In this document: in pieces, positions 5,372 to 54,707 of the stretch
How positions within the stretch are numbered: position 1 is the stretch's first letter
Layout: each line of letters opens with the position of its first letter
Origin: an uncultured Gammaproteobacteria bacterium
Lineage (GTDB): Bacteria; Patescibacteriota; Microgenomatia; UBA12405
DNA: 55,053 bases
Reading direction: 5' to 3'
Assembly: GCA_964408995.1 (NCBI GenBank)
Contig: CAYPBP010000005.1
Location: forward strand, 1-55,053
Position numbers and translations under genes: made by a program
The notes under the pieces: generated by a model
Seen by the model: the letters and a program-made list of their open reading frames with translations, nothing else
Told to the model about the DNA's origin: nothing
Databases searched by the model: none

Positions 5372-5377
5372 AAGAAA

Positions 5378-5413
5378 CCCTCCGCCCTTCGGGCACCTCC
5401 CTTGACAGGGCGG
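5378..5413. repeat. Palindromic repeat family A (CCCT-TGAC-AGGG core)
   Basis: ccctccgcccttcgggcacctcccttgacagggcgg, near-identical to 41812-41848. Confidence 0.85.
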
Positions 5414-8543: not shown

Positions 8544-9398
8544 ATGTCTAACTTTAACCTTACCATCTACCCATCTCAAGCCGAATATGTTTTAAAACCC
8601 GGCATTACTATTATTCAAGCCTACGATATTATTAATAATTCCGATTTTGATATCACCTTAAACACTCAAGTTCTACCATGGATACCTTTTGGCAACGATG
8701 GTTCAGTTAGCTACAATCAAGCCGTCAACAATCCTGGTATTGAATTTTCTTTATCTAATGCCAACTTAAAAATAAATCAACCATTCATCTTAAAAGCTAA
8801 TTCTAAACAACAATTAGTTTTAAAAATAAAAACCGATCCAAATATTAATTTAGCTGACAATTATTACACTTTTTTTGTCTATCAAAATCAAAATGTTATT
8901 CAATCTAATAATAATTATAGTCAAACCACTGGTAAGATCGGTTCTCATTTATTATTAACTGTTTCTGATATTGAAAATCCTAAGGTAAATTCTATAATTC
9001 AAAATTTTTCCATTACTCCAAAAATTAAAGATGTTTTTTTTAGACCAATTAACTTTCAAGGACAAATTAGAAATAATTCCAATTTTTTCTTTAAAATTAA
9101 TGGCAAAATTATTATTACTAAAAATGAAAAAACTATTAAAGAACTTGATTTAAGTCCTAACAATGTCTTAAACCATCATTCTAGAGACATATTTTGTCAA
9201 GATCAAAACACTTGTAGCCTTAACCAACCCCTTTGGCCTGGCTACTACAAACTTAAGATGGAACTTGATCCTAGTCTTAATGCTAAAACTTACAATACTT
9301 CTTTTTATGTTTTACCAATTTCCCCTATTTTATTTCTACTTTTTACCACTATTACAATACTTGTATTTAAAAAAATTAAAAGTAAAAAAACTACTTAA
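8544..9398 (+). CDS. DUF916/WxLIP-like Ig-fold partner with C-terminal TM helix
   Basis: IYPSQAEYVLKPG, GKIGSHLLLTV, PGYYK, C-terminal TM then Lys tail; paralogous to 17890-18912. Confidence 0.65.
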   Translation: MSNFNLTIYPSQAEYVLKPGITIIQAYDIINNSDFDITLNTQVLPWIPFGNDGSVSYNQAVNNPGIEFSLSNANLKINQPFILKANSKQQLVLKIKTDPNINLADNYYTFFVYQNQNVIQSNNNYSQTTGKIGSHLLLTVSDIENPKVNSIIQNFSITPKIKDVFFRPINFQGQIRNNSNFFFKINGKIIITKNEKTIKELDLSPNNVLNHHSRDIFCQDQNTCSLNQPLWPGYYKLKMELDPSLNAKTYNTSFYVLPISPILFLLFTTITILVFKKIKSKKTT

Positions 9399-9473: not shown

Positions 9474-11696
9474 ATGAAAACTAACTGCCAAACCGAACCA
9501 AATTACAAAGAATCGATCAATGTTCGAGATTTTGTTTACCAAAATATTACCCCATACGATGGTGATGCCTCTTTTTTAGTTGGACCAAGTTTAAAAACCA
9601 AAAAACTTTGGACTGAATGTAAAAAACTTTTAAAAAAAGAAACTGACAATGGTGGTGTTTTAGACATTGATACTAAAACAATTTCCAGTATTACTAGCCA
9701 CAAACCAGGCTATATTAAAAAGAATTTAGAAGTGATTGTTGGACTTCAAACCGACGAACCCCTAAAAAGAGCTATCAAACCAGCTGGCGGTATTCGAGCT
9801 GTCACCCATGCTTGTGAGGAAAACCATAAAGAAGTTGATAAAAATGTCATTGAAATTTTTACCAAATATCGTCGCACCCACAATGATGGTGTTTTCTCTG
9901 CCTATACCGAAGAAACCCTTCGACTTCGAAAAACTGGTATTTTAACTGGTCTACCAGACGCTTATGCTCGAGGCAGAATTATTGGAGATTATAGAAGAGT
10001 TGCTCTATACGGAATAGATCAATTAATTGAAGCTAAAAAAGAAGATAAAAAACAGATTAACGACACTATGACTGATGAAAAAATTAGACTTCGAGAAGAA
10101 ATTACTGAACAAATAGACGGCTTAAATTTAATGAAAGAAATGGCTCTGGATTATGGATTTAATATCAGCCTTCCGGCCCAAAATGCCAAAGAAGCTATCC
10201 AATGGACCTATTTTGCTTATCTTTCAGCTGTTAAAGAACAAGATGGAGCCGCTATGAGTTTGGGTAATGTTAGCAATTTCTTTGATATTTACATTGAAAA
10301 AGATTTAAAAAATGGCTTTTTAACTGAAGAGCAAGCTCAAGAATTAATTGATCAATTCATTATCAAACTAAGAATGGTTCGCCATCTTCGCACTACAGAA
10401 TACAATGCCCTTTTTGCTGGCGATCCAACTTGGATTACTGAATCTCTTGGTGGTTGTTGGAATAATGGTAAACATAAAGTTACTAAAACCACTTATCGCT
10501 TTTTACAAACTCTTTACAATTTAGGAGCTGCCCCAGAACCAAATTTAACTATTCTTTGGTCTCAAAACTTACCTACTCCGTTTAAAGAATTCTGTACCAA
10601 AGTATCCATTGATACTTCTTCAATTCAATATGAAAACGATGATTTAATGAGAAAAACTTGTCAAACTGACGATTATGGTATTAGTTGTTGTGTTTCTCTT
10701 TTGGAAACTGGCAAACAAATGCAATTTTTTGGAGCTAGATGCAATATTGCTAAAGCTCTTCTCTTAGCCATCAACGAAGGTGTGGATGAAGTTAGTGGTA
10801 TCAAAATTATGGATATTGAGCCTCTAAAAAGTAATTATTTGGATTATAAAGAAGTTCTTAAACGCTTTAAACTCACCACCGCCTTTCTTGCCAAAAATTA
10901 TGTTAACACCATGAATGTCATCCATTACATGCATGACAAATATTATTACGAACGAGCTCAAATGGCCCTCTTAGACACCGACGTTAAACGAGTTATGGCT
11001 TTCGGCTTAGCTGGCCTATCAGTTGCCACTGATTCACTTTCAGCTATTAAATTTGCCAAAGTTAAAGCAATTAGAAATGAACAAGGCATTGCCACTGATT
11101 TTGAAATCGAAGGTAATTTCCCTAAATATGGTAATAATGATGATTCAGTTGATTTAATTGCCAAAGATATTCTTGATAGTTTTAATCAAGAACTTCAAAA
11201 ACATCATATTTACCGAGACGCCTTACCAACTTTATCAATTTTGACCATTACCTCAAACGTAGTTTATGGTAAAAAGACTGGTTCAACCCCAGATGGCAGA
11301 AAGTTAGGAGCTCCATTTGCCCCAGGCGCCAATCCTATGCATGGTCGAGATACTAGCGGTGCTATCGCTTCCCTAAATTCTGTAGCTAAATTAGATTATG
11401 AAAATGCTAGAGATGGAATCTCAAATACCTTTTCAACTACCACCAAAACTCTAGGTGGCACCCCTAAGGAACAAACTACAAATCTATCAACCCTCCTCGA
11501 TTCCTATTTCAAAAAAAATAGCCACCATCTCAATGTTAATATCATGAATAAAGAAACCTTAATCAATGCCATGGAACATCCCGAACTCTATCCTCAATTA
11601 ACCATCAGAGTTTCTGGTTATGCTGTCAATTTCATCAAATTAAACCGCGAACAACAACAAGAAGTCCTTTCTCGAACTTTCTTTGAGACAATGTAA
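9474..11696 (+). CDS. pflB: Pyruvate formate-lyase
   Basis: [26 protein letters not shown], active-site ISCCV, glycyl-radical motif [12 protein letters not shown]. Confidence 0.97.
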
Positions 11697-11698
11697 AT

Positions 11699-12424
11699 AT
11701 GCTAAAAGTTCATTCAATTGAAACATTTGGAACCCACGAAGGACCAGGTATTCGTTTGGTAGTTTTTCTTCAAGGATGTAATATCCGTTGTCTTTATTGC
11801 CACAACCCCGATCTTCTAGAAATAAAAGGCGGCCAAGAAATGACTGTTAAAAAAATTATTGATATTGCCCAAAATCAAAAAGAATATTTTAGTGATAATG
11901 GCGGTATCACTGTTTCCGGTGGTGAACCAACTCTCCAAGCAGTTGACGTCTTAAAATTATTTAAAGCCGCTAAAAAAATCGGTATTCACACTGCTCTGGA
12001 CACCAACGGAACTATTATCAATAATGATGTTAAAAAACTCTATGATAAAACTGATCTCTTACTTTTAGATGTTAAACACATTAATGATCAAGAACACCAA
12101 AAACTAACCGGTTGCAGTAATAAAAATGCTTTAGAAATGGCTAAATTCAGAGAACTTTCTAAAAAACCAATGTGGCTTCGCTATGTTTTGGTCCCAAATA
12201 TCAATGACAGTCAAAAATTTTTAACCGATTGGGCTAACTATTTTAAAGATTATAAAAGCATTCAACGTGTTGAAATCTTGCCTTATCACACCCTTGGAGT
12301 CTATAAATATAAAGAGTTAGGGATGAAGTACTTTTTAAAAAACACCCCACCGCCTACCGACTCTTCCATTTCTCTTGCCAAATCAATCTTTGATAAATAC
12401 TTTAAAGAAGTGGTAGTTAAATAG
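11699..12424 (+). CDS. pflA: Pyruvate formate-lyase activating enzyme (radical SAM)
   Basis: GPGIR...QGCNIRCLYCHNPD, GITVSGGEP, LPYHTLG; 2 nt after pflB. Confidence 0.96.
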   Translation: MLKVHSIETFGTHEGPGIRLVVFLQGCNIRCLYCHNPDLLEIKGGQEMTVKKIIDIAQNQKEYFSDNGGITVSGGEPTLQAVDVLKLFKAAKKIGIHTALDTNGTIINNDVKKLYDKTDLLLLDVKHINDQEHQKLTGCSNKNALEMAKFRELSKKPMWLRYVLVPNINDSQKFLTDWANYFKDYKSIQRVEILPYHTLGVYKYKELGMKYFLKNTPPPTDSSISLAKSIFDKYFKEVVVK

Positions 12425-12426
12425 CT

Positions 12427-12888
12427 TTAAATCAAAACCAATTCCTCTTCTTTGATTAATCCCACTAATTTCAGTAAGTTTTTAGTCATCAATTCCACTG
12501 AAAATATTTTAGGTTCAAATTCGGCTAATTTTGCCACTTCCACCCATTTATATTCGCTATATTCTTCATTTAATTTAATTTCCCCACTCTCATATCTGGC
12601 ATAATAATGTGGCAAAATCATAAAAGATCCATCCGCTTTAACAAAATAAACCATAGTATTAAAAACTGGATAAACTTTCACTTTAAAATTCTCTCCCATC
12701 TCTTCATCTTTTTCTCTTTTCAATCCCTCCACAATTCCCCCATCAGTAATCTCCATTTTCCCTCCAATAAAAGAAAAAACTCCATCAAAATCCTTCTCTC
12801 TAATTCTTTTGGCCAACAAAACTTCCGTATTATTATTTCTAAAAACTACAATCTTTTGACAGTTAGTAAAAGCATATTTTGAATCCAT
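12427..12888 (-). CDS. Nudix hydrolase (likely start 12888)
   Basis: Nudix box GGKME...LKREKDEEMG; NEEYSEYKWV. Confidence 0.88.
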   Translation of the reverse strand: MDSKYAFTNCQKIVVFRNNNTEVLLAKRIREKDFDGVFSFIGGKMEITDGGIVEGLKREKDEEMGENFKVKVYPVFNTMVYFVKADGSFMILPHYYARYESGEIKLNEEYSEYKWVEVAKLAEFEPKIFSVELMTKNLLKLVGLIKEEELVLI

Positions 12889-12933
12889 AGACGATTGTAC
12901 CAAATCTTTCAAAATCCACCCCTTAAGTTTAAA

Positions 12934-12972
12934 CCCCTCAGTCCTTCGGACGGCTCCCCTTGACAGGGGAGC
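12934..12972. repeat. Family A repeat overlapping the DUF559 3' end
   Basis: cccctcagtccttcggacggctccccttgacaggggagc; encodes CSPVKGSRPKD-stop on the minus strand. Confidence 0.85.
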
Positions 12973-13357
12973 ATTTTATAAACTCTTTAATTATTTTTTC
13001 TACTTCATTAATTTTATTTATCACCTCTTCATTATTGAATCTTAATGTTTTAATTCCACAACAATCTAAGTATTTATCTCTCAAGATATCTCTTTCTTTT
13101 TTATTGTTATGTGAATCACCATCTACCTCAATAATTAAACTTAATTCAGAACAATAAAAATCAGCTATAAATCTTCCAATTGGTTTCTGTCGACTAAATT
13201 TATATCCTAAATGCTTTTTTCTTAATAATTTATTCCATAATATCTTTTCACTTTCAGTTTCTTTTTTTCGATTTATTTTTGCTGCCCAAGTTAAAACATC
13301 ACAATATCTCAAATGATATTTCTTTGTTTTTGTTTCAATGACAATATTGTTTTTCAT
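12938..13357 (-). CDS. DUF559 / Vsr-like PD-(D/E)xK endonuclease
   Basis: TESEKILWNKL, FSRQKPIGRFIADFYC, IIEVDGDSH, ERDILRDKYL, LRFNNEEV. Confidence 0.92.
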   Translation of the reverse strand: MKNNIVIETKTKKYHLRYCDVLTWAAKINRKKETESEKILWNKLLRKKHLGYKFSRQKPIGRFIADFYCSELSLIIEVDGDSHNNKKERDILRDKYLDCCGIKTLRFNNEEVINKINEVEKIIKEFIKCSPVKGSRPKD

Positions 13358-13364
13358 TTCACTT

Positions 13365-13596
13365 CCTCCCCTGTCAAGGGGAGGCCAGGAGGGGTTTAAA
13401 TATATAAAATATATGTAGTAATTATTACATAATAATTAATTTAATGCTCCCCTGTCAAGGGGAGCTGTCCCGATTCGTCAATTCAAACCCTTCCCCAACC
13501 CCTTCCCTTGACAGGGCAGGGATAAAATATAATTTTATTTAAATTACAGCTCCCCTGTCAAGGGGAGCTGTCCCGCAACTGCGGGACCAAGGGGTT
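13365..13596. repeat. Cluster of four family A palindromes upstream of DUF559
   Basis: Cores ccctgtcaaggg/cccttgacaggg at ~13369, 13450, 13505, 13552. Confidence 0.88.
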
Positions 13597-13621
13597 TGAA
13601 TTAGAGGGATTTTGGACGACC

Positions 13622-13669: not shown

Positions 13670-16309
13670 TTACTTAGCTTCAACAGCAGCTTGTGCAGCA
13701 GCTAATCTAGCGATTGGTACTCGGTAAGGGCTACAAGACACATAATTCAATCCAATTCTGTGACAGAATTTAACTGTGTCTGGATCTCCACCTTGTTCTC
13801 CGCAGATACCAATGTGAAGGTCTTTATTAACTCCTCGACCCAATTTAACTGCCATTTCCATAAGTTTACCAACACCAGCTTGGTCAACACTCTTGAATGG
13901 ATCTTCAGCCATGATTTTTTCTCTTAAATAATCTTTTAAGAATTTACCAGCATCATCTCGAGAGAATCCATAAGTCATTTGAGTTAAATCGTTGGTTCCA
14001 AATGAGAAGAATTCAGCTTCAGTAGCAATTTCATCAGCAGTTACGGCAGCACGAGGAATTTCAATCATGGTTCCAATCTCATATTTAAGATTAACTCCAT
14101 ATTCTTTCATGGTTGCTTCAATAACTGGAACTAGTTTAGCTTTTAACCATTTCATTTCTTCAACATCAGAAACTAATGGAATCATGATTTCAGGAACGAT
14201 TTTAGCACCTTTCTCTTTGGCTAATTCACAAGCTGCACTCATAATAGCTTTAACTTGCATTTGAGCCACTTCTGGGAAAGTAACTGCTAATCTACATCCA
14301 CGATGACCCATCATTGGGTTGAATTCATGAAGAGATTTTATTTTCTCTTTTAGAGTTTCAAATTGAATTCCCATTTCTTTTGCTAAAGCTTCGATGTCTT
14401 TATCTTCCTTTGGCACGAATTCGTGTAGAGGTGGATCAAGTAATCGAATTTTAACTGGAAGTCCGGCCATGATTTCAAATAATTGTTTGAAGTCATTTTT
14501 TTGCATTGGGAATAATTTTCCTAAAGCAGCTTCTCTTTGCTCTAAAGTGTCAGAGATAATCATTTGGCGAATAGCAAAGATTCTGTCTTCTTCAAAGAAC
14601 ATGTGTTCAGTTCTACAAAGACCAATACCTTGAGCTCCAAATTCTCGAGCCACTTTGGCATCTTTTGGAGTGTCTGCATTAGTTCTGACATTCATAGTTC
14701 GATATTTATCTGCCCATTTCATTAGAGTTTCAAAATCTCCACTCAAAGCCGCTTCCATGGTTGGAACTTGACCTAAAAAGACTTCACCAGTAGAACCATC
14801 TAGAGTAATGAATTCGCCTTCTTTTACTTCTAAATCATCTACTTTAAACATTTTGGCAGATTCGACAACTGTTATTGATTCACAACCAGCCACACAACAT
14901 CGACCCATACCTCGGGCTACCACAGCCGCATGAGAAGTCATTCCACCTCGAGCAGTCAAAATACCAGAAGCAGCATTCATACCAGCAATATCTTCAGGAG
15001 AAGTTTCAGCTCTAACTAAAATAACTTTTTTACCATTTTCAACCCAATTCACAGCTGTTTCTGCATTAAAGACCACTTGTCCATAAGCAGCACCCGGTGA
15101 AGCTGGTAAACCTTTAGCAATAACTTTGAAATCAGATTTAGCTTTAGGATCTAACATTGGATGAAGTAATTGATCTAATTTATCAGCTTCAACTCTAGTT
15201 AAAGCAGTTTTTTCATCAATCATACCTTCAGCTACTAAATCAACCGCTACTTTTACCATAGCTGGAGCAGTTCTTTTAGCATTTCTGGTTTGCAAAACAA
15301 ACAATACTCCATTTTCAATAGTAAATTCAACGTCTTGCATATCCTTGTAATGTTTTTCTAATCTATCAAAAATAGCAATAAGTTCTTTATAAACAACTTC
15401 ATTATCTTCTTTAAGAGAATCAAGTTTTTTAGGAGTTCTAATTCCTGCTACCACATCTTCACCTTGAGCATTCATCAAATATTCTCCATAAGCTTTATTT
15501 TCTCCAGTTGAAGGATTACGAGTAAAAGCCACCCCAGTTCCACAATCATCACCCATGTTTCCAAAAACCATAGCTTGGACGTTAACTGCAGTTCCAAAGA
15601 TTTTTTTCTCATCAACTTTATTTAATTGACGATAAATACAAGCTCGTGGATTATTCCAAGAACCAAAAACAGCATTGATAGCTCCCCAAAGTTGGACTTT
15701 AGCGTCACTTGGAAAATCTTTACCTTTTTCAACTTTATAAAGTTCTTTATAACCTTTAACCACTTCTTGCCAATCTTCAGCTGTCATTTTGGTATCTTCT
15801 TGAATCCCTTTTTTAGCTTTAACAGTGTTGATAATATGTTCTAATTTTTCATGTTCCATGCTTTCAACCACATTACAATACATTTGAATAAATCTTCGGT
15901 AAGAATCCCAAACAAATCGAGCATTACCAGTTTTTTCTACCATTCCTTTGACCACTTCTTCATTTAAACCTAAGTTTAAAATAGTGTCCATCATTCCAGG
16001 CATTGAAGCTGCAGCTCCAGATCTAACTGAAACTAAAAGTGGATTTTTAACATCTCCAAATTTCTTACCAGTTGTTTCTTCTAATTTCAAAATTCCCTCT
16101 TCAACTTCTTTTTCTAATTCGACAGGATATTGATTGCCATTATTATAATAGTATTGGCAAACTTCGGTTGACAAAGTAATACCGGCTGGAACTGGAATTC
16201 CAAGATTAGTCATTTCGGCAAGATTAGCTCCTTTACCACCAAGAATATATTTCATATCCTTGTCACCTTCAGCTTTTCCATTACCAAAAAAATAGACGTA
16301 TTGTTTCAT
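13670..16309 (-). CDS. ppdK: Pyruvate, phosphate dikinase
   Basis: LGGKGANLAEM, VSVRSGA..SMPGMMDT, GGMTSHAAVVARG, IGLCRTEHMF, FSFGTNDLTQ. Confidence 0.98.
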   Translation of the reverse strand: MKQYVYFFGNGKAEGDKDMKYILGGKGANLAEMTNLGIPVPAGITLSTEVCQYYYNNGNQYPVELEKEVEEGILKLEETTGKKFGDVKNPLLVSVRSGAAASMPGMMDTILNLGLNEEVVKGMVEKTGNARFVWDSYRRFIQMYCNVVESMEHEKLEHIINTVKAKKGIQEDTKMTAEDWQEVVKGYKELYKVEKGKDFPSDAKVQLWGAINAVFGSWNNPRACIYRQLNKVDEKKIFGTAVNVQAMVFGNMGDDCGTGVAFTRNPSTGENKAYGEYLMNAQGEDVVAGIRTPKKLDSLKEDNEVVYKELIAIFDRLEKHYKDMQDVEFTIENGVLFVLQTRNAKRTAPAMVKVAVDLVAEGMIDEKTALTRVEADKLDQLLHPMLDPKAKSDFKVIAKGLPASPGAAYGQVVFNAETAVNWVENGKKVILVRAETSPEDIAGMNAASGILTARGGMTSHAAVVARGMGRCCVAGCESITVVESAKMFKVDDLEVKEGEFITLDGSTGEVFLGQVPTMEAALSGDFETLMKWADKYRTMNVRTNADTPKDAKVAREFGAQGIGLCRTEHMFFEEDRIFAIRQMIISDTLEQREAALGKLFPMQKNDFKQLFEIMAGLPVKIRLLDPPLHEFVPKEDKDIEALAKEMGIQFETLKEKIKSLHEFNPMMGHRGCRLAVTFPEVAQMQVKAIMSAACELAKEKGAKIVPEIMIPLVSDVEEMKWLKAKLVPVIEATMKEYGVNLKYEIGTMIEIPRAAVTADEIATEAEFFSFGTNDLTQMTYGFSRDDAGKFLKDYLREKIMAEDPFKSVDQAGVGKLMEMAVKLGRGVNKDLHIGICGEQGGDPDTVKFCHRIGLNYVSCSPYRVPIARLAAAQAAVEAK

Positions 16310-18969: not shown

Positions 18970-19851
18970 ATGCTTCTTTTATTTTTAATATTATTACTTC
19001 TCCCAAGACCTGTTTTTGCCAAAGAAATTCCCAAATCAGTAAATATTTCTGCTTCTATTGGTGAAAATGAAGTCACTATCTTTGGTTACAGTTCTCCAAA
19101 TGCCAAAATTGAATTAACTGGTATCAATATTTATTCCCTGACTTTTAGCGGCAAAGACGGCTATTTTAAATTTGACAAAATTATTCTGCCAAGAGGCAAA
19201 TCAGAACTCTGTTTGCAAGCAAAAGACACCAACAATAGAAGTACTACTCCAATATGCATTCCTCCGCCACCACCAACCAATTACCATACTGACATTGGCC
19301 CTATTCTTTTACCACCTACAGTTTCTTTGGAACAAGATAAAATCAATCCTAACTCAACTGTCATTTCTTCTGGTCAAAGTATTCCTAATTCCCCTGTTAC
19401 CATTTTCTTTTATAAAGAAAATGACAAAGGTAAGTCTTTCCCCAAAAAAGTTCTTGCTTATTCCCTACCACCATTAAAAAGCAACTCTGATAACGAAGGT
19501 CATTACAGTTTAAATCTGCCTACCGCCTATTCTAGTAATTACAGGCTCTACACTTCAGTTCAATATGGCGATAACTTTTCTCCAAAATCAAACACTCTTT
19601 TATTTTTAATGCCATCTTTTTCTAAACTATGGCTTCAACAAAATTCATATTTAGCTATCATTTTATTTGTTTTTATCTTAACTATTCTCCTTTTCTTCAT
19701 CCTCCTATTCTTAAATTCCAAAACTTACAAAAAAATAATAGAAATTAGATTTCTTCCTGCCATTCGTAATTTTTATCCTGCCATTAGAAACGAAAATTAC
19801 CCTTATGTTTATCCAGAAAGTCTTAATCGTCGCTTCAAAATCCCAAAATAA
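18970..19851 (+). CDS. Ig-like domain surface protein with C-terminal TM
   Basis: Signal peptide; two repeats of the G.S.PNA/S.I/V...DG.F/Y pattern; TM near C-terminus. Confidence 0.7.
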   Translation: MLLLFLILLLLPRPVFAKEIPKSVNISASIGENEVTIFGYSSPNAKIELTGINIYSLTFSGKDGYFKFDKIILPRGKSELCLQAKDTNNRSTTPICIPPPPPTNYHTDIGPILLPPTVSLEQDKINPNSTVISSGQSIPNSPVTIFFYKENDKGKSFPKKVLAYSLPPLKSNSDNEGHYSLNLPTAYSSNYRLYTSVQYGDNFSPKSNTLLFLMPSFSKLWLQQNSYLAIILFVFILTILLFFILLFLNSKTYKKIIEIRFLPAIRNFYPAIRNENYPYVYPESLNRRFKIPK

Positions 19852-24765: not shown

Positions 24766-25209
24766 ATGACTGCCCAAATCTTTGAATCCTACCAAAACTG
24801 GCTTAAAGCAAGATCTTATTCCAGTGCCACCATTAGAAACTACTTAGTTGACCTTAGAAAATACTTTCTTTTCACTAATCGAGATTCAGACGAGATATCA
24901 GATAACATTTTCAATTCAGACAATTTAAGCTCTTACTTTCAAAACATTAACCAAGACCAAAATTATAAACGTTTTTTAGCTTCGCTCTCTAAATTCTTTC
25001 AGTTTGCCTTAGATCAAAAACTAATTTCCAAAAGTCCTTTCAAAGAAGCTCTAAAAAATAATCAAGAAATAAAAGGCCATGATATTCCATCGGCTATAAA
25101 TTTATATAAACAACAGCTTGTTGCTAAAAAATCATCTCCATCAACTATACGAAACTATATCAACGACATTCATCAATTTATTAATTGGGCTTCAAGTGAA
25201 CCTAAATAA
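24766..25209 (+). CDS. Integrase core-binding (SAM-like) domain protein, 1.5 domains, no catalytic domain
   Basis: WLKARSYSSATIRNYLVDLRKY...KRFLASLSKFFQF...SPF, then QLVAKKSSPSTIRNYINDIHQFINW. Confidence 0.8.
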   Translation: MTAQIFESYQNWLKARSYSSATIRNYLVDLRKYFLFTNRDSDEISDNIFNSDNLSSYFQNINQDQNYKRFLASLSKFFQFALDQKLISKSPFKEALKNNQEIKGHDIPSAINLYKQQLVAKKSSPSTIRNYINDIHQFINWASSEPK

Positions 25210-28200
25210 TCTATTTACTACTTCTCGTCTAAACGAATATACTGCTTTCTTAAAAAGCACCAATCTTTCTGATGCCAGTCTTAAACGTAAGCTTTCTTCT
25301 CTTTCTTCTTTTCAAAAATTTTTAGTTAAAAAGAAACTAATTCAACCTGATTCAAACCCACTCACCTTCCAAACACCTTCTTTTAGCAACGAGACTATAA
25401 AAAAAAACATTGAAAACTCTATAAACCAACCTGAATTAAAAGCTAATTTTTTAAAAAAAATAATTTCCCGTTTCATACCAGATACTAAATACTTAATACC
25501 AAATACTAAACCAAACAATTTCTTATTCCGTTACATAACCATTTTCTCTCTTTTTGCTATTGGCGTTGGTCTTGGCTTCACTCTCTATCAACAAGCCTTT
25601 ATTCAATCAAATAAAAATCTAGCTTATTCAAATGCCAATAATCCAGTCAAAGCTGGTCGTTTTCTTTCCTTTCAAGGCCGTTTAACTGACTCTAGTGGTA
25701 ATCCTATTGTTGCAGAAACTGAGATCTATTTTCAACTTTGGAATAAAGATATTGGGGGTACTATGCTTTACACCACACTAGACAATGGTAACAGTCAAAC
25801 TGTTATCCCCGACGAAAATGGTATCTTTTCCATCACTATTGGTAAAAGTCATGGACCAGAAATACCTGCTGATGTATTTTCTGAAAATGCCGAAATTTGG
25901 TTGGAAATTACTGTTGACGATGAAACAATGGAACCTCGCCAACCTATTGCTACTGTTGCCTATGCTCTCAATGCTGAAACCTTGCAAGGTTTACCACCAG
26001 ATGCTGGCGGTTATAAAGATACAGTGCTAGTTATAGATTCCGAAGGTAACTTAAACTTAGGAGAAACTTCTCCTACTATCAAATCTATATCTGGGACCAT
26101 GGGTATTGAAGGTCAAGCTATTCTTATTAAATCTTCTGAAGGTTCTGGTGGCAATATTGATATTAATCCAGATGGTCAAGGTATAGTTCAGTTAATTAAC
26201 GAAGCTAGTGATGGTAGCCTTGTTGTTAGTAATACAAATTTAATAATGGGTAATCTTATTACTGGTCAAGTTAATACCGAAGAACGTGGCTATAATTTCA
26301 TCGATTTTCAAAATAAAGATGCTTTTGGTGATTTAACTAGTCGTTTCTCTGTCAATTCCTATGGTGATGCTTATATAGACAATGATTTAACTGTATCAAA
26401 CAACGCTGATATTGGTGGTAGCCTTTCTGTAAGTGATTATTCTATTTTTTCTAAAGGTATCGGTATCACTGGCAATTCTGCTTTTAATAATAATCTTTCT
26501 ATTGGTGGGACTTTAACTTTATCTCAAAATCCTGGAGCTGGTAAAATTCTTCAATCAGATGCTTTTGGTAATGCTTCTTGGGTTGACAATAACGGCAGTG
26601 GTGTAGGTGTTAGTTATTTTTCTGGATCAGGTTTAACTTTAAATAATGATACTTTCAAACTAGGCGGTGCCTTAACTGAAAATATGCGTCTTAATATTGG
26701 AAACACAGAAGCTTTTTATATTCAAAATTCAACTGGTAATATCGGTCTTGGTACCACTAATCCCACAGCAAAGCTTAGTGTAGTTGGTGATATTGGAGCT
26801 AATCAACTCAACATCACCACCTCAGGTGAAACTTTTGGACCTGGTACTATTATTTACTCAGCTAACTCCAACTTATCGGGTTCCATAAATACTGGCGATT
26901 TTAATAATGATGGTAAAACAGATTTAATTATTAACGATCAATATTTTTACAGGGTTAGAGTTTTTACTGGTAATGGTGATGGTACTTATCAAAATAGTAC
27001 TATTCATCAAACTAATGATATTAGTTATTTTGATCCATCATCAATAACTATCGCTGACTTCAATAATGATAATTATGACGACTTTGCTATTACTAGTAGT
27101 AATTATAGTGATCAAATTATTGTCTTTATTAATAATCAAAATAGTGATTTTGATTCTGGAACTAGTTATTTGGTTGATGGCTATTCATCTTCCATTAATA
27201 GTGGTGATTTTAATGGTGATGGATTTATTGACTTATTAACTAATAATCCAGACAGTAATAACATTAGTGTTTTTCTTAATAATAATGGTACTTTTGGAAC
27301 GGGTGTTACTTATTTCAGTGATACTTATGTATATAATACTGAAATTAGTGATTTTAATAGTGATGGTAAAGACGATTTAATTTATTTAGATGGTTATTCA
27401 GGTGACTTAACTGTAGTTCTTAGTAATAATGGCACTTTTGGAACTGGTGTTACTTATCCAACAAATAATTATGGAGATATTGAAATTAATGATTTTAATT
27501 TTGATGGTAAAAACGATTTTGTCGTTTATGATGGGTATTCTTTAGATGTTTATCTTAATAACAATGGTACTTTTAATAAAAGTACTTTTAATATTTCAAC
27601 AAGTGGTGTATCTCAAATTAATAGTGGTGATTTTAATGGTGATGATTATCCTGATTTAGTCACTAATACAGATTCCAACAACATTGCTGTTTTAATTAAT
27701 AATAATGGCACTTTTGAAAGTAATATTTACTATCCAACTAATGGAGATATATCAACTTCTATCACCACCGGTGATTTTGATAGTGATAATAAAGACGAAA
27801 TAGTATCAATCAATGGTAATACTAAAGTCAGTTTTTTTAATGAAAGACCAAACATATCTATCATTACTGATAATATTGGTAACATTGGTATTGGAACTAC
27901 TTCTAACTCTTTATATAAACTAACTGTTGTTGGTGATGCATTATTTTCTAATAAACTTTCAATTGGCGGTACTCTTTCAGCTAATTATATTTCATCTACC
28001 AATATTTACAATACCAACTCTGTATCCACCAGTAGTCTTTATACTACTTCTTTTAGACTTGCTAATAATGTTCATAATGGATATATTTTAACGAGTGATG
28101 TTTGGGGTAATGGCATTTGGACTGCCCCTTCAACTATTGGTACCAATTATGTTGCTGGCAACGGTATTACTATTAATAGTAGTAACCAATTTAAGCTTGG

Positions 28201-31200
28201 TGGTAGATTAACTGAAAATACTTCTATTGGTGTTTCTTCGTTTGGATTGTCTTTTCTAGGCCTAGGTAATACCCAAGCACTTTATATTGCTTCTACCGGG
28301 AGGATTGGTATTGGCACCACTAGCCCAAGTTATAAGCTTCATGTTATTGGTAATGGTTATTTTTCTACGAATCTTTCAGTTGGCGGAACTTTAACCCTAA
28401 CTCAAGGCGCTGGAGCTAATAAAATTCTTCAATCAGATGCTTCTGGTAATGCTTCTTGGGTTTCCCCTTCAAGTATTGGTACTACTTATGTCGCTGGAAA
28501 TGGTATTACTCTTAATAGCAGTAATCAATTTAAACTAGGTGGTAACTTAATTGAAAATACTTCTATTGGTATTTCGTCCTCTTATTTAAGATTTACTGCT
28601 GGTAATGGTAGTACTGAAGCCCTTTATATTTCTAATACCAGCAGAGTTGGTATTGGCACCACTAATCCTCTCTCTAAATTAAGTGTAGTTGGTTCTATTT
28701 CTGGTGATAACCTAGTTCTAGCTGGTAATGTTCAATTGAACAGTTTTGCTGGTTTTAATAATTACTTAGATAGCTCTGGCGGTCTTGGTACTGGTGGTAT
28801 TCAAAGAATAACTAGTACTGGTAATTTAACTAATATTAGCTCTATCCAAGCTGGACAACTTAATATTACTTCTGATTTTAATTTTAGTATTGGAACCAGT
28901 TACCCCATAAATATAGGAAGTTCTGAACCATCTTCTATAACTTCTGCTGATTTTAATGGTGATGGTAAACCTGATTTAGCTACCGCTAATGGTGGAAGTG
29001 ATAATATTACTATTTTTATTAATAACGGAAATGGTGCTTATAGTACTGGCGTTGATTACTCTAATAATATTGGAAGTCACCCATGGTCTATAACTTCCGC
29101 TGATTTCAATAGTGATGGTAAACCTGATTTAGCTACCGCTAATGGTGGAAAAGGAAATATCACAATATTTACCAACAATGGAGATGGAACTTTTGGAACT
29201 GGCATTACTACTCGCGCCCCATCCTATTCAAATTGGCATCGTTCCATAATTTCGGCTGATTTCAATAGTGATGGTAAACCTGATTTAGCTACCGCTAATA
29301 CTGGTGACAATAAAATAAATGTCTATCTAAATAATGGCAATGGTAATTTTATAAATAGCACTAATTATTCGGTTCCTTGCCAAGACCCATCTTCTATAAC
29401 TTCTGCTGATTTCAATGGTGATGGTAAACCTGATTTAGTTACTTACGAACAAGAGCACTCTACCCTTTGTGTTCTAACTAATAATGGTGGTAATTCCTTT
29501 ATAGGTACCACCAATCCTCAACCGGACATTGGTTATTCGCAAAATAATATTATTTCTACTGATTTTAATGGTGATAGTAAAACTGATTTAATAGTTACCT
29601 CCCATAAATATGATGGTGGTAATACGACAACCATGGTAAATATTTTAAATGGTATCGGTAATAGTACTTTTGGAGTTGGTGCTAGTTATCAAATGTCTCT
29701 AGATTCGTATACATATAACAATAGTATAACTACTAATGATTTCAACGGTGATGGTAAACCTGACATAGCTACTCAAAAAATGACTTGGGATGAAAATAAT
29801 TATTGGAGCTACAATACAGTTATTATCCCTAATAATGGTGATAATACTTTTGGTCTTGGCATTACTTATCCATCAACATATGGATGGCAAAATTCCATTA
29901 TTTCGAATGATTTTAATAGTGATGGTAAAGACGATTTAGCATATATAAGTGGTTCCACCATTAACGTTAATCTGAATAATTCTAACCCAACTCTTTTCAC
30001 TTCAATTTCGGGAAATGTCGGCATCGGCACTAGTAATCCTTTATCTAAACTAAGTGTTATCGGCGACGCTTCAATTTCAAGCAATCTTTCAGTCGGTGGA
30101 TCTTTAACATTAACTCAAGGAGCTCAGGAAGGATATATTTTAACTAGCGATTCAAACGGTAATGCCTATTGGGCTATAAGTGGCAGTGGTGGAATTGGTA
30201 CTGTCAATAATGGTCTTACTTTGTCTAATTATCAACTTCAATTAGGAGGTAATTTAATTCAAAATACATCAATTGGTGTTTCATCATTTGGACTATCATT
30301 TTTAAGTTCAGGCGATACTCAAGCACTTTATATTGCTTCTAATGGCAGCATTGGTATCGGTACCACCAACCCAACAGCAAAACTAAGTGTTGTTGGCAAC
30401 GCTTATTTTGCCGATAATGTCGATCTTGGTACTACTAATCAAACAGCAAAATTAGAAATAACAGGCAATATTAAGATTAACTCGATTAGTCATACATTAG
30501 ATACCGGAACCACTTATCCAGAAAATAATGATTATGGTAGGCCATGGGGTATCACTTCCGCCGATTTTAATGGTGATAATAAAATTGACATAGCTACTGT
30601 TGACCGCAGTCAACATAAATTTTTTATTTTTAATAACACCAACAATGGCAACTTTGATGTTGGTGCCAGTTATTATGTAGAATCGCCAACTTCCATCACT
30701 ACTGGTAATTTTAATAATGATGATAAACCTGATTTAGCCATAGTTAGTTGGCAAACTATTGGTGTTTTTACAAATGATGGCAGTGGTAATTTTGACACTG
30801 GCACAACTTATCCTAGTCATACATATGCATATAATAATAAAATTATAACCGCCGATTTTAATAATGATAGTAAAGATGATATAGCCGTTTCCTCCTACAA
30901 TGGTGACAGTTTTGAAATTTTTACAAATGATGGCAGTGGTAATTTTGGCACTGGCATAACTTATCCATCAACATCAGTAAGATCTATCGCTTCTGACGAT
31001 CTTGATGGTGATGGTAAAAAAGATTTAGTAACTTTTAATAACGGTTATATCACTATTTTTACAAATGATGGCAGTGGTAATTTTGACACTGGCACAACTT
31101 ATTCTGGATCTGGAGGAGCAACTAATTTTAACGGTTCACCAATGGCAATTGCCGATTTTAATAATGATAGTTTTAAGGATATAGCAACTTTAAATAATGA

Positions 31201-34200
31201 CTTATTTATTTTTACAAATGATGGCAGTGGTAATTTTGGCACTGGTGTAAGTTCCCCAGTTAATGCTGGAGCAGGTGATGGTATGGTTGCCACTGATCTT
31301 GATGGCGATGGCAGAATTGATTTAGTATCTACTGACAATAACAATCAAATAAACTTTTTAAAAAATAATGGTAACCATTCTTTTTCTAAAGATAGCAGCT
31401 ATCAAACTATAGAAAACAGACCAATTGATATTACTTCTGCTGACTTTAATAACGATGGTTTTAACGATATAGCTACTGCCAATGTCTGGGGTAAAGGTAT
31501 AACAGTTTTTCTAAATAAAATTGACGGCATTAACCCAACTTTTTTTACTAGTAATGGTGGTTTTGTTGGCATCGGCACCACCAATCCTACCCAAAAATTA
31601 GATATTGTTGGTGATATTAATCTAACTGGTACTATATTTGCCAATAATACTTCTGGCTCTAATGGACAAATTTTAAGTTCTACTGGAATTGGTTTATCTT
31701 GGATTAACCCTAGTTCTGTCGGTACCACCTATACTGCTGGAATTGGGTTAAGTTTAGCCAATAATACATTTCATCTTAATTTAGCTTCAACTAACACATG
31801 GACTGGCATTCAAAACTTTTCTACTGGAGCTACCATTTCCAGTCTTTCTGTTGGAGGTACCTTATCAGTTACTGGTAACTCTACTTTTACCAACAATCTT
31901 TCGGTTGGAGGTACCTTATCAGTTACTGGTCGTTCTACTTTTTCTAATGGTATTGGAATTACTGGTAACTCTACTTTTACTAACAATCTTTCGGTTGGTA
32001 ATACTTTGTTTGTCAATAGTAAATTAAAAATATATAATGGCGGAGTTAATACTAACAATTATGTTTTAACAAGTGATAATAATGGCAATGCCACTTGGAA
32101 ACAAAATATTCCTGTTCTTTACACCTCTTCCAATGGTATTACTCTTTCTGGTACTGAATTTAAACTTGGTGGTAGATTAACTGAAAATACTTCTATTAAT
32201 GTTTCTTCATCTTTTCTAAGATTTACTGCTGGTAATGGTAGTACTGAAGCACTTTACATTGCTAATACCGGTAGAATAGGTCTTGGTACCACTAGTCCAA
32301 GTAAAAAATTAGATGTTGTTGGCGATATTAATCTTAGTGGTACTATTTTTGCTACTGGAACTTCTGGATCTAATGGACAAGTATTAACTTCCACCGGTGC
32401 TGGTTTAGCTTGGATAGATTCTGCTGCTATTGGCACAAGTTTCTCTGTTACAAATGGTTTATCAAGTATATCAAACAATGTCTTTGGTCTTGGCGGCACT
32501 TTAACTCAAAATACTTCTATTGGTGTTTCATCATCTTTTCTAAAATTTACTGCTGGTAATGGTAGTACTGAAGCACTTTACATTGCTAATACCGGTAGAA
32601 TAGGTCTTGGTACCACTAGTCCAAGTAAAAAATTAGATGTTGTTGGCGATATTAATCTTAGTGGTACTATTTTTGCTACTGGAACTTCTGGATCTAATGG
32701 ACAAGTATTAACTTCCACCGGTGCTGGTTTAGCTTGGATAGATTCTGCTGCTATTGGCACAAGTTTCTCTGTTACAAATGGTTTATCAAGTATATCAAAC
32801 AATGTCTTTGGTCTTGGCGGCACTTTAACTCAAAATACTTCTATTGGTGTTTCATCATCTTACTTAAGATTTACTGCTGGTAGTAATACAGAATCTCTTT
32901 ATATTTCTAATACCGGTAGAGTCGGTATTGGTACCGCTAGTCCAAGCCAAAAACTTCATGTTATTGGTGATGCTTATTTTGCCAGTAATGTTGGTTTTGG
33001 AGTAGCTAGTCCTACCAAAAAAATTGATGTTGCCGGTGATATTAAATTAACCGGGAAACTCTTTGTTGGTTCGGCTGGTACTTCTGGTTCTGATAATCAA
33101 GTATTAATTACTAGTGGTGATAGCCTAAATTGGGTAGATGCAAGTTCAATCAATCAACCATTATCTTTTATGAATGGTTTATCAGAAATATCAACTAATA
33201 CTATTGGTCTTGGCGGTACCTTAACTAAAACTACTTCAGTTGGAACTTCATCTTTTGATTTATTTTTTCTAGATTCTAGCAATAATAAATCACTTTATAT
33301 TGCTTCTAATGGCAACATCGGTATTGGTAATACCACCAGTCAAAGCTTCAAACTTCATGTTACAGGTGACACTTTGATTGACGGTATCACTCAATTAAAT
33401 GGTAATGTTGGAGTTAGAGATAATCTTGCTGTTGGCAGCTTAACTATGAATTACGGATCCAGCAGTGGTTATATTTTAACCAGTGATAGCATTGGTAATG
33501 CTTCTTGGATTGCTCCTAATTCTATTGGTATCGGTACTAGTTATGCTGCTGGTAATGGTTTGAATATATCTAACAACCAATTTAAACTTGGTGGTAACTT
33601 AACTGAAGCTACTTCAATTGGAATTTCTTCATCATCGTTAAGATTTACTGCTGGTAATGGAAGTACTGAAGCACTTTATATTGCTTCTGATGGAAAAATT
33701 GGTATTGGTACAACTGCTCCAACTTCAAAATTAACAGTTATTGGTGGTGCTTCAATATCAACCAATCTAACCATTGGTGGTAGTTTAGTTTCTGTTGGTT
33801 CAACTAATTTAGTTACCAATCTTAATGCTCAATACCTTGGTGGTATTGGTGCTTCTGAATTTGTTGGTATAGGTCAAACTGGTGATTTCATTACTACTTT
33901 AACTAATGGAATTGGTATCACTATTACTGGATCAGGTGTTAGTCGAAATATTACTTTTGATTATGATTCTTCTCTATTAGCTACTGGTAATAAAATTGGA
34001 CTTAATCTTGGTTCTTCTAATACTTGGACTGGTCTTCAAAGTTTTAACAATATTAACATCGGCGGAACTCTAACTCTGGGTGTCGGCGCTAGTGCTGGTT
34101 ATGTTTTAACTAGTGATGAAAGTGGTAATGCTTACTGGGCATTTAACCCTGATACCGATACCACCTACACTGCTGGAAATGGTATCACTCTTGTTGGAAC

Positions 34201-39475: not shown

Positions 39476-39592
39476 CCCACTCGCCCTTCAGGCACCCTCC
39501 CTGACAAGGGAGGGGTTAGGGGTGGGTTAAAAAAACCAAATTTCAAGCCTCCCTGTCAAGGGAGGTGGCGAGTGAAACGAGACGGAGGGTTT
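39476..39592. repeat. Inverted doublet of family A repeats
   Basis: cccactcgcccttcaggcaccctccctgacaagggaggg ... cctccctgtcaagggaggtggcgagtgaaacgagacggaggg. Confidence 0.85.
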
Positions 39593-39605
39593 TAAACCAA
39601 AGAAA

Positions 39606-40574: not shown

Positions 40575-41804
40575 ATGGAATATACTCAAGAACAAATCGA
40601 AAAACTAAAATCTCTAGGTGTCGATGTAAAAATAGAAACTCCCCGTCTTGTCAAAGAAGGGGTTGGGGGAAGATTGAACCTGACATCTGAAATTAAACAT
40701 TCTAAATCCTCAGTTTTCCCATTATTATCTATTTCAGGAATAACTCTCCTTTCTTTCTCAGGCTTAATTTTATTAAAAAACCAAAATAATGATTCTGCTT
40801 TTAAAAATCCAACCAAAATTCAAGATCCAAAATCTGACGTCTCAATAACTCCAACTCAAGTACCTAAATCTATCCAACATTATCTTTTAACTTCACAACA
40901 ATATTTTTCAAGAGCTTTGGAACAACAAAGCTCGCAGAACCCCGCAACCGCGGGGTCAAATCCTAATCAAACTTTGGATCTCATAAATCAATCTATAATC
41001 GCCGCCAGCGATGCTATTAAAGAATTTCCAAATGACTATCGTGGTTACCAACAAAGAGGTAAAATTTACCAAGCTCTTATTGAATCAAAACCAGATCTTA
41101 TAAATCAATCTATATCAGATATTTCTAGTGCTTTAAAACTAAATCCCAACTCATCTGAAATCACTAAAAACCTTGCCTCTCTCTATGCCAAAAAAGGCGA
41201 TGCTCAAAATACTATTTTATATCTAAATCAAACCGTTGCCCTTGAACCAACCAAAGCCCAAAACTTTTATGATTTAGCTAAGATTCAGCAACAAGCTGGA
41301 TTTCTTAACCAAGCTATTGAAACTTACAATCAATTAATTACCCTAGTCACTGATCCAACTCAAAAATCTCAAATTGAAATCGAAAAATCAGCTTTAGAAA
41401 AATTAATTGCCCAAAACCCAAATCCACCATCAAAAATAAATAATTCATTACCCACAATCGATGATCCACAATCGACAATCAACAATCTTGAAAGTCCTAC
41501 TATTCAAGCCTTAGCTGATGGCGGTTTAATTATTGCTGCTCCAGAAGAATCTAATAAAATTAAAGTTACCAACCAAACTGATTCTAATTCTTTTTCTGGC
41601 AACTCAATTCTCCCTTCTGGTCAAAAAGAAATAACTATCACCAATAATAATATTTCTTCCACTTCTCCAGTCTATGTCACCGCCACCAAAGGTGGTAAAA
41701 ACCAAAACCTTCAAGTGTTAAGTAAATCCAAAGAATCATTCATTGTAGGTCTAAATTCCCCTATTTCCGAAGACATTGAATTCAAGTGGTGGATAATAAA
41801 TTAA
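40575..41804 (+). CDS. TM-anchored TPR protein with C-terminal WWIIN domain
   Basis: TM ISGITLLSFSGLILL, TPR-like helices (YRGYQQRGKIY, NFYDLAKIQ), C-terminus homologous to that of the giant protein. Confidence 0.85.
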   Translation: MEYTQEQIEKLKSLGVDVKIETPRLVKEGVGGRLNLTSEIKHSKSSVFPLLSISGITLLSFSGLILLKNQNNDSAFKNPTKIQDPKSDVSITPTQVPKSIQHYLLTSQQYFSRALEQQSSQNPATAGSNPNQTLDLINQSIIAASDAIKEFPNDYRGYQQRGKIYQALIESKPDLINQSISDISSALKLNPNSSEITKNLASLYAKKGDAQNTILYLNQTVALEPTKAQNFYDLAKIQQQAGFLNQAIETYNQLITLVTDPTQKSQIEIEKSALEKLIAQNPNPPSKINNSLPTIDDPQSTINNLESPTIQALADGGLIIAAPEESNKIKVTNQTDSNSFSGNSILPSGQKEITITNNNISSTSPVYVTATKGGKNQNLQVLSKSKESFIVGLNSPISEDIEFKWWIIN

Positions 41805-41811
41805 ATTAAAA

Positions 41812-41925
41812 CCCTCCGCCCTTCGGGCATTTCCCTTGACAAGGAGGCTTTCTTCTTGGGGTCATCATTTCATTTTAAGTCGCCCTGTCAAGGGAGATGT
41901 CGAACGAAGTGAGACAGAGGGTTTT
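41812..41925. repeat. Inverted doublet of family A repeats
   Basis: ccctccgcccttcgggcatttcccttgacaagg ... cgccctgtcaagggagatgtcgaacgaagtgagacagaggg. Confidence 0.85.
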
Positions 41926-41927
41926 GT

Positions 41928-54583: not shown

Positions 54584-54707
54584 GAATTCTGGCCACGACC
54601 TATTTTCAAGATCCCTTACGGGAAGACTATTGTCGGCGCTAAAGAGTTTCACTTCTCTGTTCGAAATGGGAAGAGGTGGTGCCACTTCGCTCCAATGACC
54701 AGAGTTC
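54584..54707 (-). rRNA. rrf: 5S rRNA
   Basis: Helix I GAACTCTGGTC/GGCCAGAATTC, CACCTCTTCCCATTTCGAACAGAGAAGTGAAA, GAAAATAGG. Confidence 0.95.

Follow-up and report, generated by a model that had tools for sequence, protein, structure and literature searches.

How does a small nuclease gene come to be framed by, and partly built from, copies of an intergenic repeat, and does its product have a hand in spreading them? The question is raised by a DUF559 gene on contig CAYPBP010000005.1 of an uncultured bacterium (assembly GCA_964408995.1); the whole stretch of 55,053 nucleotides that was analysed (33% GC) is called the window here. Going by the names of its homologs, the DNA belongs to a Candidatus Shapirobacteria-type bacterium of the Candidate Phyla Radiation (CPR). 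A sequence-only reading had taken the gene and its repeats for a REPtron-like unit, by analogy with repetitive extragenic palindromes (REPs) and the REP-associated tyrosine transposases (RAYTs). The RAYT-REP-like arrangement and the gene-repeat unit have stood up; a single repeat family of the gene's own and the novelty of the repeat have not, the repeat being of the BoxC/PIT/TM kind. We consider it slightly better than an even chance (about 0.55) that the DUF559 nuclease and its repeat modules form a functional analogue of the RAYT-REP/REPIN system built on a homing-endonuclease-type hydrolytic enzyme.

With all window copies oriented alike, the repeat is a module of about 45 nt made of a first hairpin (hp1; C-rich arm, GTCA loop, G-rich arm), a variable second hairpin (hp2) and the terminus GAGGGGTTT, a purine run closed by TTT; short forms without hp2 read hp1-(G)GTTA-GGGGTGGG-TT. 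The DUF559 open reading frame (ORF) lies between two inverted modules (12931-12972 and 13365-13400) whose termini face outward. Together, the gene and its repeats make up a discrete unit of about 0.5 kb, which in the window spans 12931-13400 (about 470 bp). The features at the gene are as follows.

12938-13357, minus strand: DUF559 ORF, 139 aa, matching PF04480
12931-12972, minus strand: 3' module (right terminal repeat), long form, with hp1 GCTCCCCT-GTCA-AGGGGAGC at 12953-12972
12941-12951 and 12931-12939, minus strand: parts of the 3' module, namely hp2 GTCC-GAA-GGAC and the terminus GAGGGGTTT
13365-13400, plus strand: 5' module (left terminal repeat) without hp2, CCTCCCCT-GTCA-AGGGGAGG, CCAG, GAGGGGTTTAAA
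13446-13476, plus strand: truncated solo module, hp1 GCTCCCCT-GTCA-AGGGGAGC followed by half of hp2, without terminus
13485-13597: gene-less inverted doublet with termini outward, left short form 13485-13521 (minus), right long form 13549-13597 (plus) with hp2 GTCCCGC-AACT-GCGGGAC
5399, 12957, 13369, 13450, 13505, 13553, 39499, 39551, 41833 and 41883: starts of the ten cores matching CCCTGTCAAGGG

These cores, each merely the first hairpin of a module, are far from chance. Allowing one mismatch, the 12-mer CCCTGTCAAGGG has 10 matches across the window against 0.12 expected, a number attained by none of 100 shuffles, and the 18-mer CTCCCCTGTCAAGGGGAG has five (0.04 expected), all inside 12954-13567. 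The claim that five of the ten cores cluster at this gene is thereby borne out.

The modules also furnish working parts of the gene, as had been proposed. On the gene strand the ORF ends TGC TCC CCT GTC AAG GGG AGC CGT CCG AAG GAC TGA, so that the 3' module contributes its last 11 codons together with the TGA stop (12938-12940). Upstream, the gene strand reads AAACCCCTCCTGG-CCTCCCCT-TGAC-AGGGGAGG-AAGTGAA-ATG, where a GGAGG 7 nt ahead of the ATG occupies the 3' arm of an 8-bp stem. It is plausible that this stem represses translation by burying the Shine-Dalgarno (SD) sequence, an idea to which its predicted stability (-16.9 kcal/mol, with a z-score of only -1.7) lends weak support. The hp1 loop and its closing pairs spell TTGACA, a -35-like hexamer, on the gene strand; TTGATA, TTGAAA or TTAAAA takes its place in other clades. 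Two promoter-like sites in the upstream modules, TTGACA-18 nt-TATTAT from 13458 to 13429 (truncated solo) and TTGACA-18-TAAAAT from 13561 to 13532 (gene-less doublet), lie on the gene strand and are aimed at the DUF559 gene, each with an 11/12 sigma-70-like match. Relative to adjacent ORFs, modules were antisense in 9 cases, sense in 4, divergent in 4 and convergent in 3, among 37, with no consistent bias. A terminator or untranslated-region function at the RNA level was not adopted, given this lack of orientation bias.

The gene is free-standing and intergenic, flanked by NUDIX and PPDK genes. Residues 25-127 of its product match the PF04480 profile (E 8.8e-31; 106.4 bits against a cut-off of 20.6), and the only families matched by the ORF are of the PD-(D/E)xK kind: DUF559, MTES_1575, PvuRts1I-like and DUF2726. 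In an AlphaFold2 model (pLDDT 85.8) the best fold match by Foldseek is the uncharacterised 3HRL, while the catalytic domain of I-Bth0305I (3R3P) ranks third (TM 0.57/0.72) and is also found by profile (E 0.0019). Residues D66, E77, D79, H83, D90 and R93 are among those invariant in 38 homologs of 49-82% identity. On these comparisons the protein is a predicted Vsr-fold, EDxHD-type PD-(D/E)xK nuclease. The ORF is under purifying selection, with dN/dS of 0.11-0.18 against its orthologs and 0.02-0.19 across all DUF559 comparisons; these values and the invariant catalytic residues together argue that the protein is functional.

Among the best 25 of the 50 Pfam families matched by the 31 window ORFs there is no tyrosine transposase, in line with what had been claimed, nor any Y1 or other transposase, nor a DNA methyltransferase. 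Rfam covariance searches of the window and module-bearing loci found no intron RNA families, PADLOC gave only weak partial matches to DpdF and a methyl-directed restriction endonuclease, and 2.9 million viral contigs held a single weak relative of the protein. A role as a Vsr-type repair endonuclease was rejected: the window protein has no match to the Vsr family at E<=0.01, the best 25 of the 50 families include no methyltransferase that could be the Dcm-type partner of a Vsr enzyme, and the label 'very-short-patch-repair endonuclease' is the automatic annotation of one source. The AlphaFold2 model (m32d485037138) is also matched by large-subunit proteins of the Toxoplasma gondii mitoribosome (9i05, 9g6k), which we take to be RAP-like Vsr-fold RNA-binding domains; if they are, structured RNA is a further ligand of the Vsr fold. 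Conserved small nucleases make up the large DUF559 family, to which, to our knowledge, no function has been assigned.

The association of gene and repeat extends well beyond this contig. Using a query alignment stripped of its palindrome-derived tail, 85 relative loci (numbered with L) were gathered, each with 10 kb on either side. Association was then counted for the 72 Shapirobacteria-type DUF559 genes of CPR bacteria with complete flanks, random windows of the same loci serving as background. A C-rich palindrome lies within 100 nt upstream of 71 of the 72 genes, at the 3' end of 65 and on both sides of 64, compared with background rates of 3.7% (upstream) and 2.5% (3' end). In many of the 85 loci the TGAC-loop hairpin stands about 31 nt before the start and the GTCA-loop hairpin 10-22 nt past codon 127; the stems vary among loci and usually match within one locus. 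Furthermore, the C-terminal tails of 120 homologs (45-82% identity) are mostly G/C-rich palindromes translated in different frames, giving peptides such as SPVKGS, PLPCQGKG, LACQGEV, PLLSKRG and ALSRE, so it is the DNA element that is conserved and not the peptide. The 5' and 3' repeats of one unit are more complementary (median score 37) than mismatched pairs (20), and in most units the inverted termini AAACCCCTC...GAGGGGTTT are complementary over 20-70 nt. DUF559 alleles co-vary with the flanking repeat, a point that had been proposed for testing: in a neighbour-joining tree, clades coincide with hp1 types. Several low-GC metagenome-assembled genomes with Shapirobacteria-like genes and cassettes carry the titles 'uncultured Gammaproteobacteria' or 'Pseudomonadales' and are probably mislabelled bins.

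Cassettes built this way are the norm for the CPR members of this DUF559 subfamily, and comparison of sites among relatives showed that they evolve and relocate as a unit. For example, between L066 and L029 the identity is 93% across 546 bp, a stretch beginning exactly with AAAACCCTCC and ending with GGAGGGTTTT; for L037 and L061 it is 91% across 489 bp. The flanks are unrelated in both pairs. Every outlying repeat site of the window is a DUF559 cassette site in some relative:

5375-5413, minus strand: solo module of the CCTCCCT subfamily, between ComEC-like and Lactamase_B-like genes
39474-39593, both strands: inverted doublet of the CCTCCCT subfamily, directly after the 4785-aa ORF and between convergent genes
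41809-41926, both strands: inverted doublet of the CCTCCCT subfamily, between convergent genes, with about 11 nt of a DUF559 3' end retained
ComEC/Lactamase_B site (window solo 5375-5413): empty in L060, where the genes overlap; without module in L006
ComEC/Lactamase_B site, other relatives: solo in L001, L038 and L009; full cassette in L031, L032, L040 and L045
Site after the giant ORF (window doublet 39474-39593): DUF559 cassette in L037
409-aa/662-aa gene site (window doublet 41809-41926), both orientations: DUF559 cassette in L029, L012, L071 and L037

Empty sites, which the sequence-only reading had suggested looking for, do exist: orthologous sites are empty, or hold a solo, a doublet or a cassette, in either orientation and from different clades. 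The junction of doublet 41809-41926 is identical to that of L012. At L071 9880-10330 the elements are nested: behind the 5' repeat of an L012-type cassette comes an entire cassette from another clade, which has short-form repeats of its own. At the window's own site, L001 and L060 have flanks about equally related to those of the window (PPDK 88% identical), whereas their DUF559 alleles are 80% and 52% identical to its allele, with different modules. Five near-identical copies of the window locus provided no empty/occupied pair and hold the same module set. Across relatives, the GGAGGGTTT terminus at the ComEC site ends 2-5 nt ahead of the ATG of the downstream gene; in the window's 5375-5413 solo it stops 3 nt short of it. 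The flanks of 55 units and 50 modules display only a preference for T-rich (hp1 side) and A-rich (terminus side) sequence.

The outlying cores were described earlier as a solo at 5399 and inverted doublets between convergent genes, which is right except for the 39499 core, whose orientation is opposite to that implied by the pattern match. The left hp1 of that doublet bears an additional rightward short-form tail, AGGGAGGGG-TTA-GGGGTGGG. One family for all ten cores is correct as regards the shared core; there are two subfamilies, with GCTCCCCT at the gene and CCTCCCT elsewhere. Moreover, 39547-39593 matches the 5' repeat of the L066 DUF559 gene at 46 of 47 positions, and 5375-5413 and 41809-41852 are closest to the 3' repeats of L066 and L029, the gene's own repeats being distinct. 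The DUF559 clade cognate to the CCTCCCT cores is that of L066, L029 and L012, whose protein is about 51% identical and which is absent from the 55-kb contig. Given their subfamily, and because relatives carry DUF559 cassettes at the corresponding sites, these five outlying cores seem to be left over from, or partnered with, cassettes that the window lacks, and do not look like products of this gene.

The modules themselves are shown to be structurally constrained in hp1, hp2 and the mirror terminus. Folded as single-stranded DNA (ssDNA), the 3' module forms two hairpins (-11.1 kcal/mol, z -3.7) and none of 200 shuffles is as stable; its terminal GAGGGG mirrors the purine arm GGGGAG. Among 30 module types the terminus is the exact mirror of the hp1 purine arm in 20 and within one mismatch of that mirror in 29, compared with 7% and 47% in mismatched control pairs. 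Between identical hp1 and terminus there are 43 distinct hp2 sequences, of which 38 fold in the same register, with a mean minimum free energy of -6.0 kcal/mol against -1.8 for shuffles; the variation of hp2 is thus extensively compensatory. Hp1, by comparison, is unchanged where dS is about 1. At strain level hp2 is a hotspot of variability. The ORF is identical in 4 other samples, and of 18 internal variable columns across 870 aligned nt, 10 fall in the hp2 apex (13574-13583) of module 13549-13597, 5 in the linker of the 5' module and none in the ORF. The hp2 alleles of module 13549-13597 include GTCCCGC-AGTT-GCGGGAC and GTCC-TTCGATGGGCTCA-GGAC in otherwise almost identical strains.

By its sequence, the repeat is assignable to a known kind. 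The BoxC and PIT elements are reportedly the subject of papers by Bergler from 1992 and by Hoyne and Maher from 2000. The family was named BoxC, then PIT elements and then TM, for an intrastrand triplex motif in which a pyrimidine arm is followed by its purine complement and then by a purine block that mirrors this second arm (Holder et al., 2015; PMC4666352). In Escherichia coli MG1655 there are 23 copies (TMECOs), five inverted pairs among them, and the family occurs in more than 260 genomes; TMECO loci undergo increased rearrangement, and transposase or integrase remnants were never found near them (Holder et al., 2015). The CPR modules have the three-block architecture of these motifs, with the mirror block exact in 20 and nearly so in 29 of the 30 types, in the same order of pyrimidine arm, loop, purine arm, loop and mirror purine run. 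The window arms (CTCCCCT, CCTCCCT) depart from the TMECO consensus, CCCTCNCCC-N3-6-GGGNGAGGG-N3-GGGNGAGGG, and most window copies have a hairpin of 12-25 nt in place of its N3 loop. Window short forms, such as CCCTCCCT-GACA-AGGGAGGGG-TTA-GGGGTGGG at 39495-39531, share the TTA second loop of TMECO type A. Both groups are intergenic, occur as singlets and inverted pairs without strand bias and lie at rearranging loci; they differ in that the CPR long form has a whole variable hairpin for the 3-nt second loop, in their arm sequences, and in the termini of doublets, which face outward in CPR and inward in E. coli and in the gut-species pair described below.

A DUF559 gene is found beside such a motif in E. 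coli as well. The NCBIfam DUF559 equivalog best matched by the window protein, below its cut-off, is ycjD (L206; NC_000913.3 1,351,040-1,351,830). This gene ends in a degenerate C-rich TM/BoxC hairpin (...SPSP*), and its SD and GTG start are buried in a perfect 17-bp hairpin. The interval from ycjD to fabI contains part of a second DUF559 3' end, and CCCTCGCCCCTCTGGGGAGAGGGTTAGGGTGAGGGG, which is TMECO no. 9 of Holder et al. (2015), at 1,351,239-1,351,204, 170 nt downstream of ycjD. An 81-nt stretch with CCCTCGCCCCTCTGGGGAGAGGGTTAGGGTGAGGGG is present in every one of 5426 E. coli genomes, with a median count of 15 places in each. Holder et al. (2015; PMC4666352) mention neither ycjD nor DUF559 nor endonucleases, and a search of the literature on DUF559, ycjD, Vsr-like nucleases, CPR inverted repeats and intrastrand triplexes yielded no paper linking a nuclease to the repeats. 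We could find no earlier report of a DUF559-TM association reaching from CPR to E. coli.

Among known systems, RAYT-REP is mirrored in the layout, as had been noted: it has inverted flanking copies as well as dispersed singlets and inverted doublets. Both systems comprise one nuclease gene with inverted structured repeats, several cognate pairs per genome and purifying selection. Unlike RAYT-REP, the enzyme here is a hydrolytic PD-(D/E)xK protein instead of an HUH/Y1 transposase, the ORF overlaps both repeats, the whole gene-repeat unit moves between sites and genomes, and the repeat is a triplex-type motif where REP is a simple hairpin. The REP tag test was negative, the GTAG/CGTC tetranucleotide being absent from 50 module instances whose border positions are T-rich and variable. 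With I-Bth0305I and other EDxHD homing endonucleases the protein shares its fold, the catalytic motif E77-x-D79-x3-H83...D90 and, putatively, a selfish, copy-by-repair style of behaviour; unlike I-Bth0305I, its gene is free-standing and not in an intron or intein, lacks a long N-terminal DNA-binding region and is bounded by inverted structured repeats. Insertion sequences (IS) and miniature inverted-repeat transposable elements (MITEs) such as Correia/NEMIS similarly have terminal inverted repeats around one small gene and promoter-like and SD-like signals, and the gene-less doublets, about 115 bp long, look like copies with an internal deletion, as MITEs do. Here, however, the sole ORF is DUF559 and not a DDE, serine or tyrosine transposase, and sharp-bordered solos are common. 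We know of no transposase assigned to Correia/NEMIS. Subterminal hairpins, which suggest recognition as ssDNA, are also seen at IS200/IS605 ends, but the DUF559 unit has no Y1 TnpA/TnpB and its two ends are true inverted repeats.

How such a unit might work can be sketched. The nuclease would use hp1 and the mirror terminus to recognise its cognate module, be it as structured ssDNA, as extruded DNA or as a palindromic duplex, and could cut in or near the module; the foremost candidate for the cut is the strain-variable hp2 apex. Repair of breaks by the host, or gene conversion, might then use the modules of about 45 nt as portable homology, so that repair would copy, replace, invert or delete the cassette and propagate modules. 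The left module supplies the stem-held SD and TTGACA, and the right module the ORF tail and stop. Such cutting and repair is suggested by proven homing endonucleases in the same fold family and by the lack of any alternative enzyme among those found, and it would account for allele replacement, inversion, decay to doublets and solos, and turnover of hp2. More tentatively, and at somewhat less than even odds, DUF559/YcjD nucleases may be the missing partner of BoxC/PIT/TM repeats from CPR to E. coli, Neisseria and cyanobacteria, acting as structure-specific enzymes that cut the three-block motif, probably at the second loop or hp2 of its cognate copy, with host repair spreading, inverting, deleting and diversifying both the cassette and its gene-less modules. 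On that view there would be a second REP/RAYT-like system, with a mechanism unlike that of the first.

Seen from the repeat side, the modules have a life outside the cassette. Among the loci found by scanning metagenomes for hp1, all low-GC instances are complete modules with sharp borders at both ends, and solo modules have sharp borders at hp1 and GGGGTTT without ORF remnants. An exact 20-nt hp1, with hp2 and a GAGGGGT terminus, also occurs at L086 5470-5593 and in about 80 other human-gut loci of about 59% GC (among L087-L205). There the modules form a doublet with termini inward at one recurrent locus of a high-GC gut bacterium, with no DUF559 within about 7 kb. L124 has a single hp1 where L135 holds the whole doublet; other indels of this species are an unrelated 5.2-kb segment and an 86-bp hairpin element. 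In L066, identical free palindromes CCCCTCCTTTGACTTAAAGGAGGGG lie about 5 kb apart at 9763-9787, 14472-14496 and 19581-19605, each beside one of three paralogous genes of about 860 aa, and were apparently copied with the tandem gene duplication.

Several observations weigh against a partnership in which the nuclease mobilises its modules. A scan of JGI metagenomes for the exact 20-nt hp1 gave 120 loci, and while the 5 with DUF559 within 100 nt were reckoned an enrichment, the other 115 are not beside it. In 1.05 Mb of CPR loci there are 261 free hp1-like palindromes against 147 gene-linked ones, and only 11% of the free palindromes match the hp1 of the neighbouring cassette at 90% identity or more, although the match to the cassettes of other loci is lower still (2%). 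Gene-less modules are thus in the majority, as REPs are relative to RAYTs. Within 55 kb, the gene-less window copies are not accompanied by a cognate gene. Linkage alone would make a gene co-vary with the DNA right beside it, and the position of many cassettes at conserved syntenic sites also suits an old inheritance, mostly vertical, accompanied by decay. No target-site duplication was resolved in the flanks of the 55 units and 50 modules, where the termini sit in a TTTAAA-like palindrome that makes one unresolvable. Finally, action of DUF559 on the modules is something we infer from sequence, since a hydrolytic PD-(D/E)xK nuclease is incapable of RAYT-type strand transfer, and the first arrival of a module at a new site is not explained by cutting and repair.

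Some of these points would be expected if the modules were an independent family, spread by an unknown or replication-linked route, and DUF559 were a selfish homing-type gene that targets gene-less doublets and is copied into them by repair. That the gene-less modules far outnumber the gene-linked ones, and that modules without a nearby DUF559 exist even in the human-gut species of about 59% GC, would fit such a landing pad, as would the presence of different DUF559 clades and orientations at one site, the old 5' repeat beside a newer cassette in L071 and the proven homing endonucleases among DUF559 relatives. Yet each clade has its own module type at both ends, and units that are 91-93% identical include their modules, which argues that modules travel with the gene; sharp-bordered solos without ORF remnants imply in addition that something moves or trims modules precisely. 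We therefore regard this history as unlikely, if worth keeping in view. An unseen enzyme elsewhere in the genome, such as a Y1/RAYT-like, IS110-like or DDE transposase, could move the modules, with DUF559 as passenger cargo between two of them. Structured ssDNA hairpin repeats are the classical substrates of HUH transposases, and the DNA inspected comprised 10 kb on either side of each locus and one 55-kb contig. Nevertheless, no transposase is among the best 25 of the 50 Pfam families matched by the 31 window ORFs, transposase or integrase remnants were never found around TMECOs (Holder et al., PMC4666352), the modules lack GTAG/CGTC tags, and a cargo would hardly be of the same family in 64 of 72 cases while overlapping both repeats with its SD and stop. 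A hidden mobiliser is thus improbable.

It is very improbable, in turn, that nothing moves at all and that the modules are cis-regulatory or structural elements of the host (-35 elements, SD sequestration, terminators, mRNA stabilisers or nucleoid sites) with DUF559 an ordinary regulated host gene. The TTGACA in hp1, the two 11/12 promoters aimed at the gene, the SD in a stem, the GGAGGGTTT terminus just ahead of an ATG at the ComEC site and the frequent position of modules between convergent genes speak for such a role. In contrast, modules lie in both orientations to neighbouring ORFs, the mirror terminus and hp2 covariation exceed what a terminator needs, and presence/absence polymorphism together with near-identical units in unrelated flanks requires movement. 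In E. coli, PIT elements acted neither as promoters nor as terminators in the work of Maher, as cited by Holder et al. (PMC4666352).

The remaining features of the window are of neighbouring genes. PFL, PFL-activase and NUDIX genes (9474-12912) separate the DUF559 cassette from a 284-aa gene (8544-9398); in L001, L006 and L060 the cassette directly adjoins a homolog of that gene, so the PFL/NUDIX block was either inserted in the window or lost in those relatives. The 4785-aa ORF (25118-39475) has many internal repeats, among them FG-GAP-like units of 150 nt, others of about 324 nt and a 51-nt tandem run at 34451-35317. Its C-terminus, ...NWWIIN*, is similar to the ...KWWIIN* of a 409-aa ORF (40575-41804), and a module doublet directly follows each. 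The contig edge (54587-55053) holds a 5S rRNA gene (54587-54703, minus strand) and the 3' end of a 23S rRNA gene. At gathering score, no Rfam family was found in the window or in four module-bearing loci, and E<=10 gave only chance-level matches; the repeat is thus not among the curated RNA families.

To summarize, the DUF559 family offers a testable candidate partner for repeats that have so far been without a known one. BoxC/PIT/TM repeats have been catalogued since the 1990s and linked to genomic instability; if DUF559 and TM repeats belong together, both puzzles become testable, with one gene (ycjD) and 23 motifs in E. coli, and the broad form of this reading, if true, would explain TM loci as rearrangement hotspots. 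A working partnership would also add a new enzymatic class to the few known between repeats and nucleases, such as REP-RAYT, in a gene-bearing mobile unit that, at about 0.5 kb, is unusually small. For the streamlined genomes of CPR bacteria, it would explain a sizeable share of the intergenic DNA.

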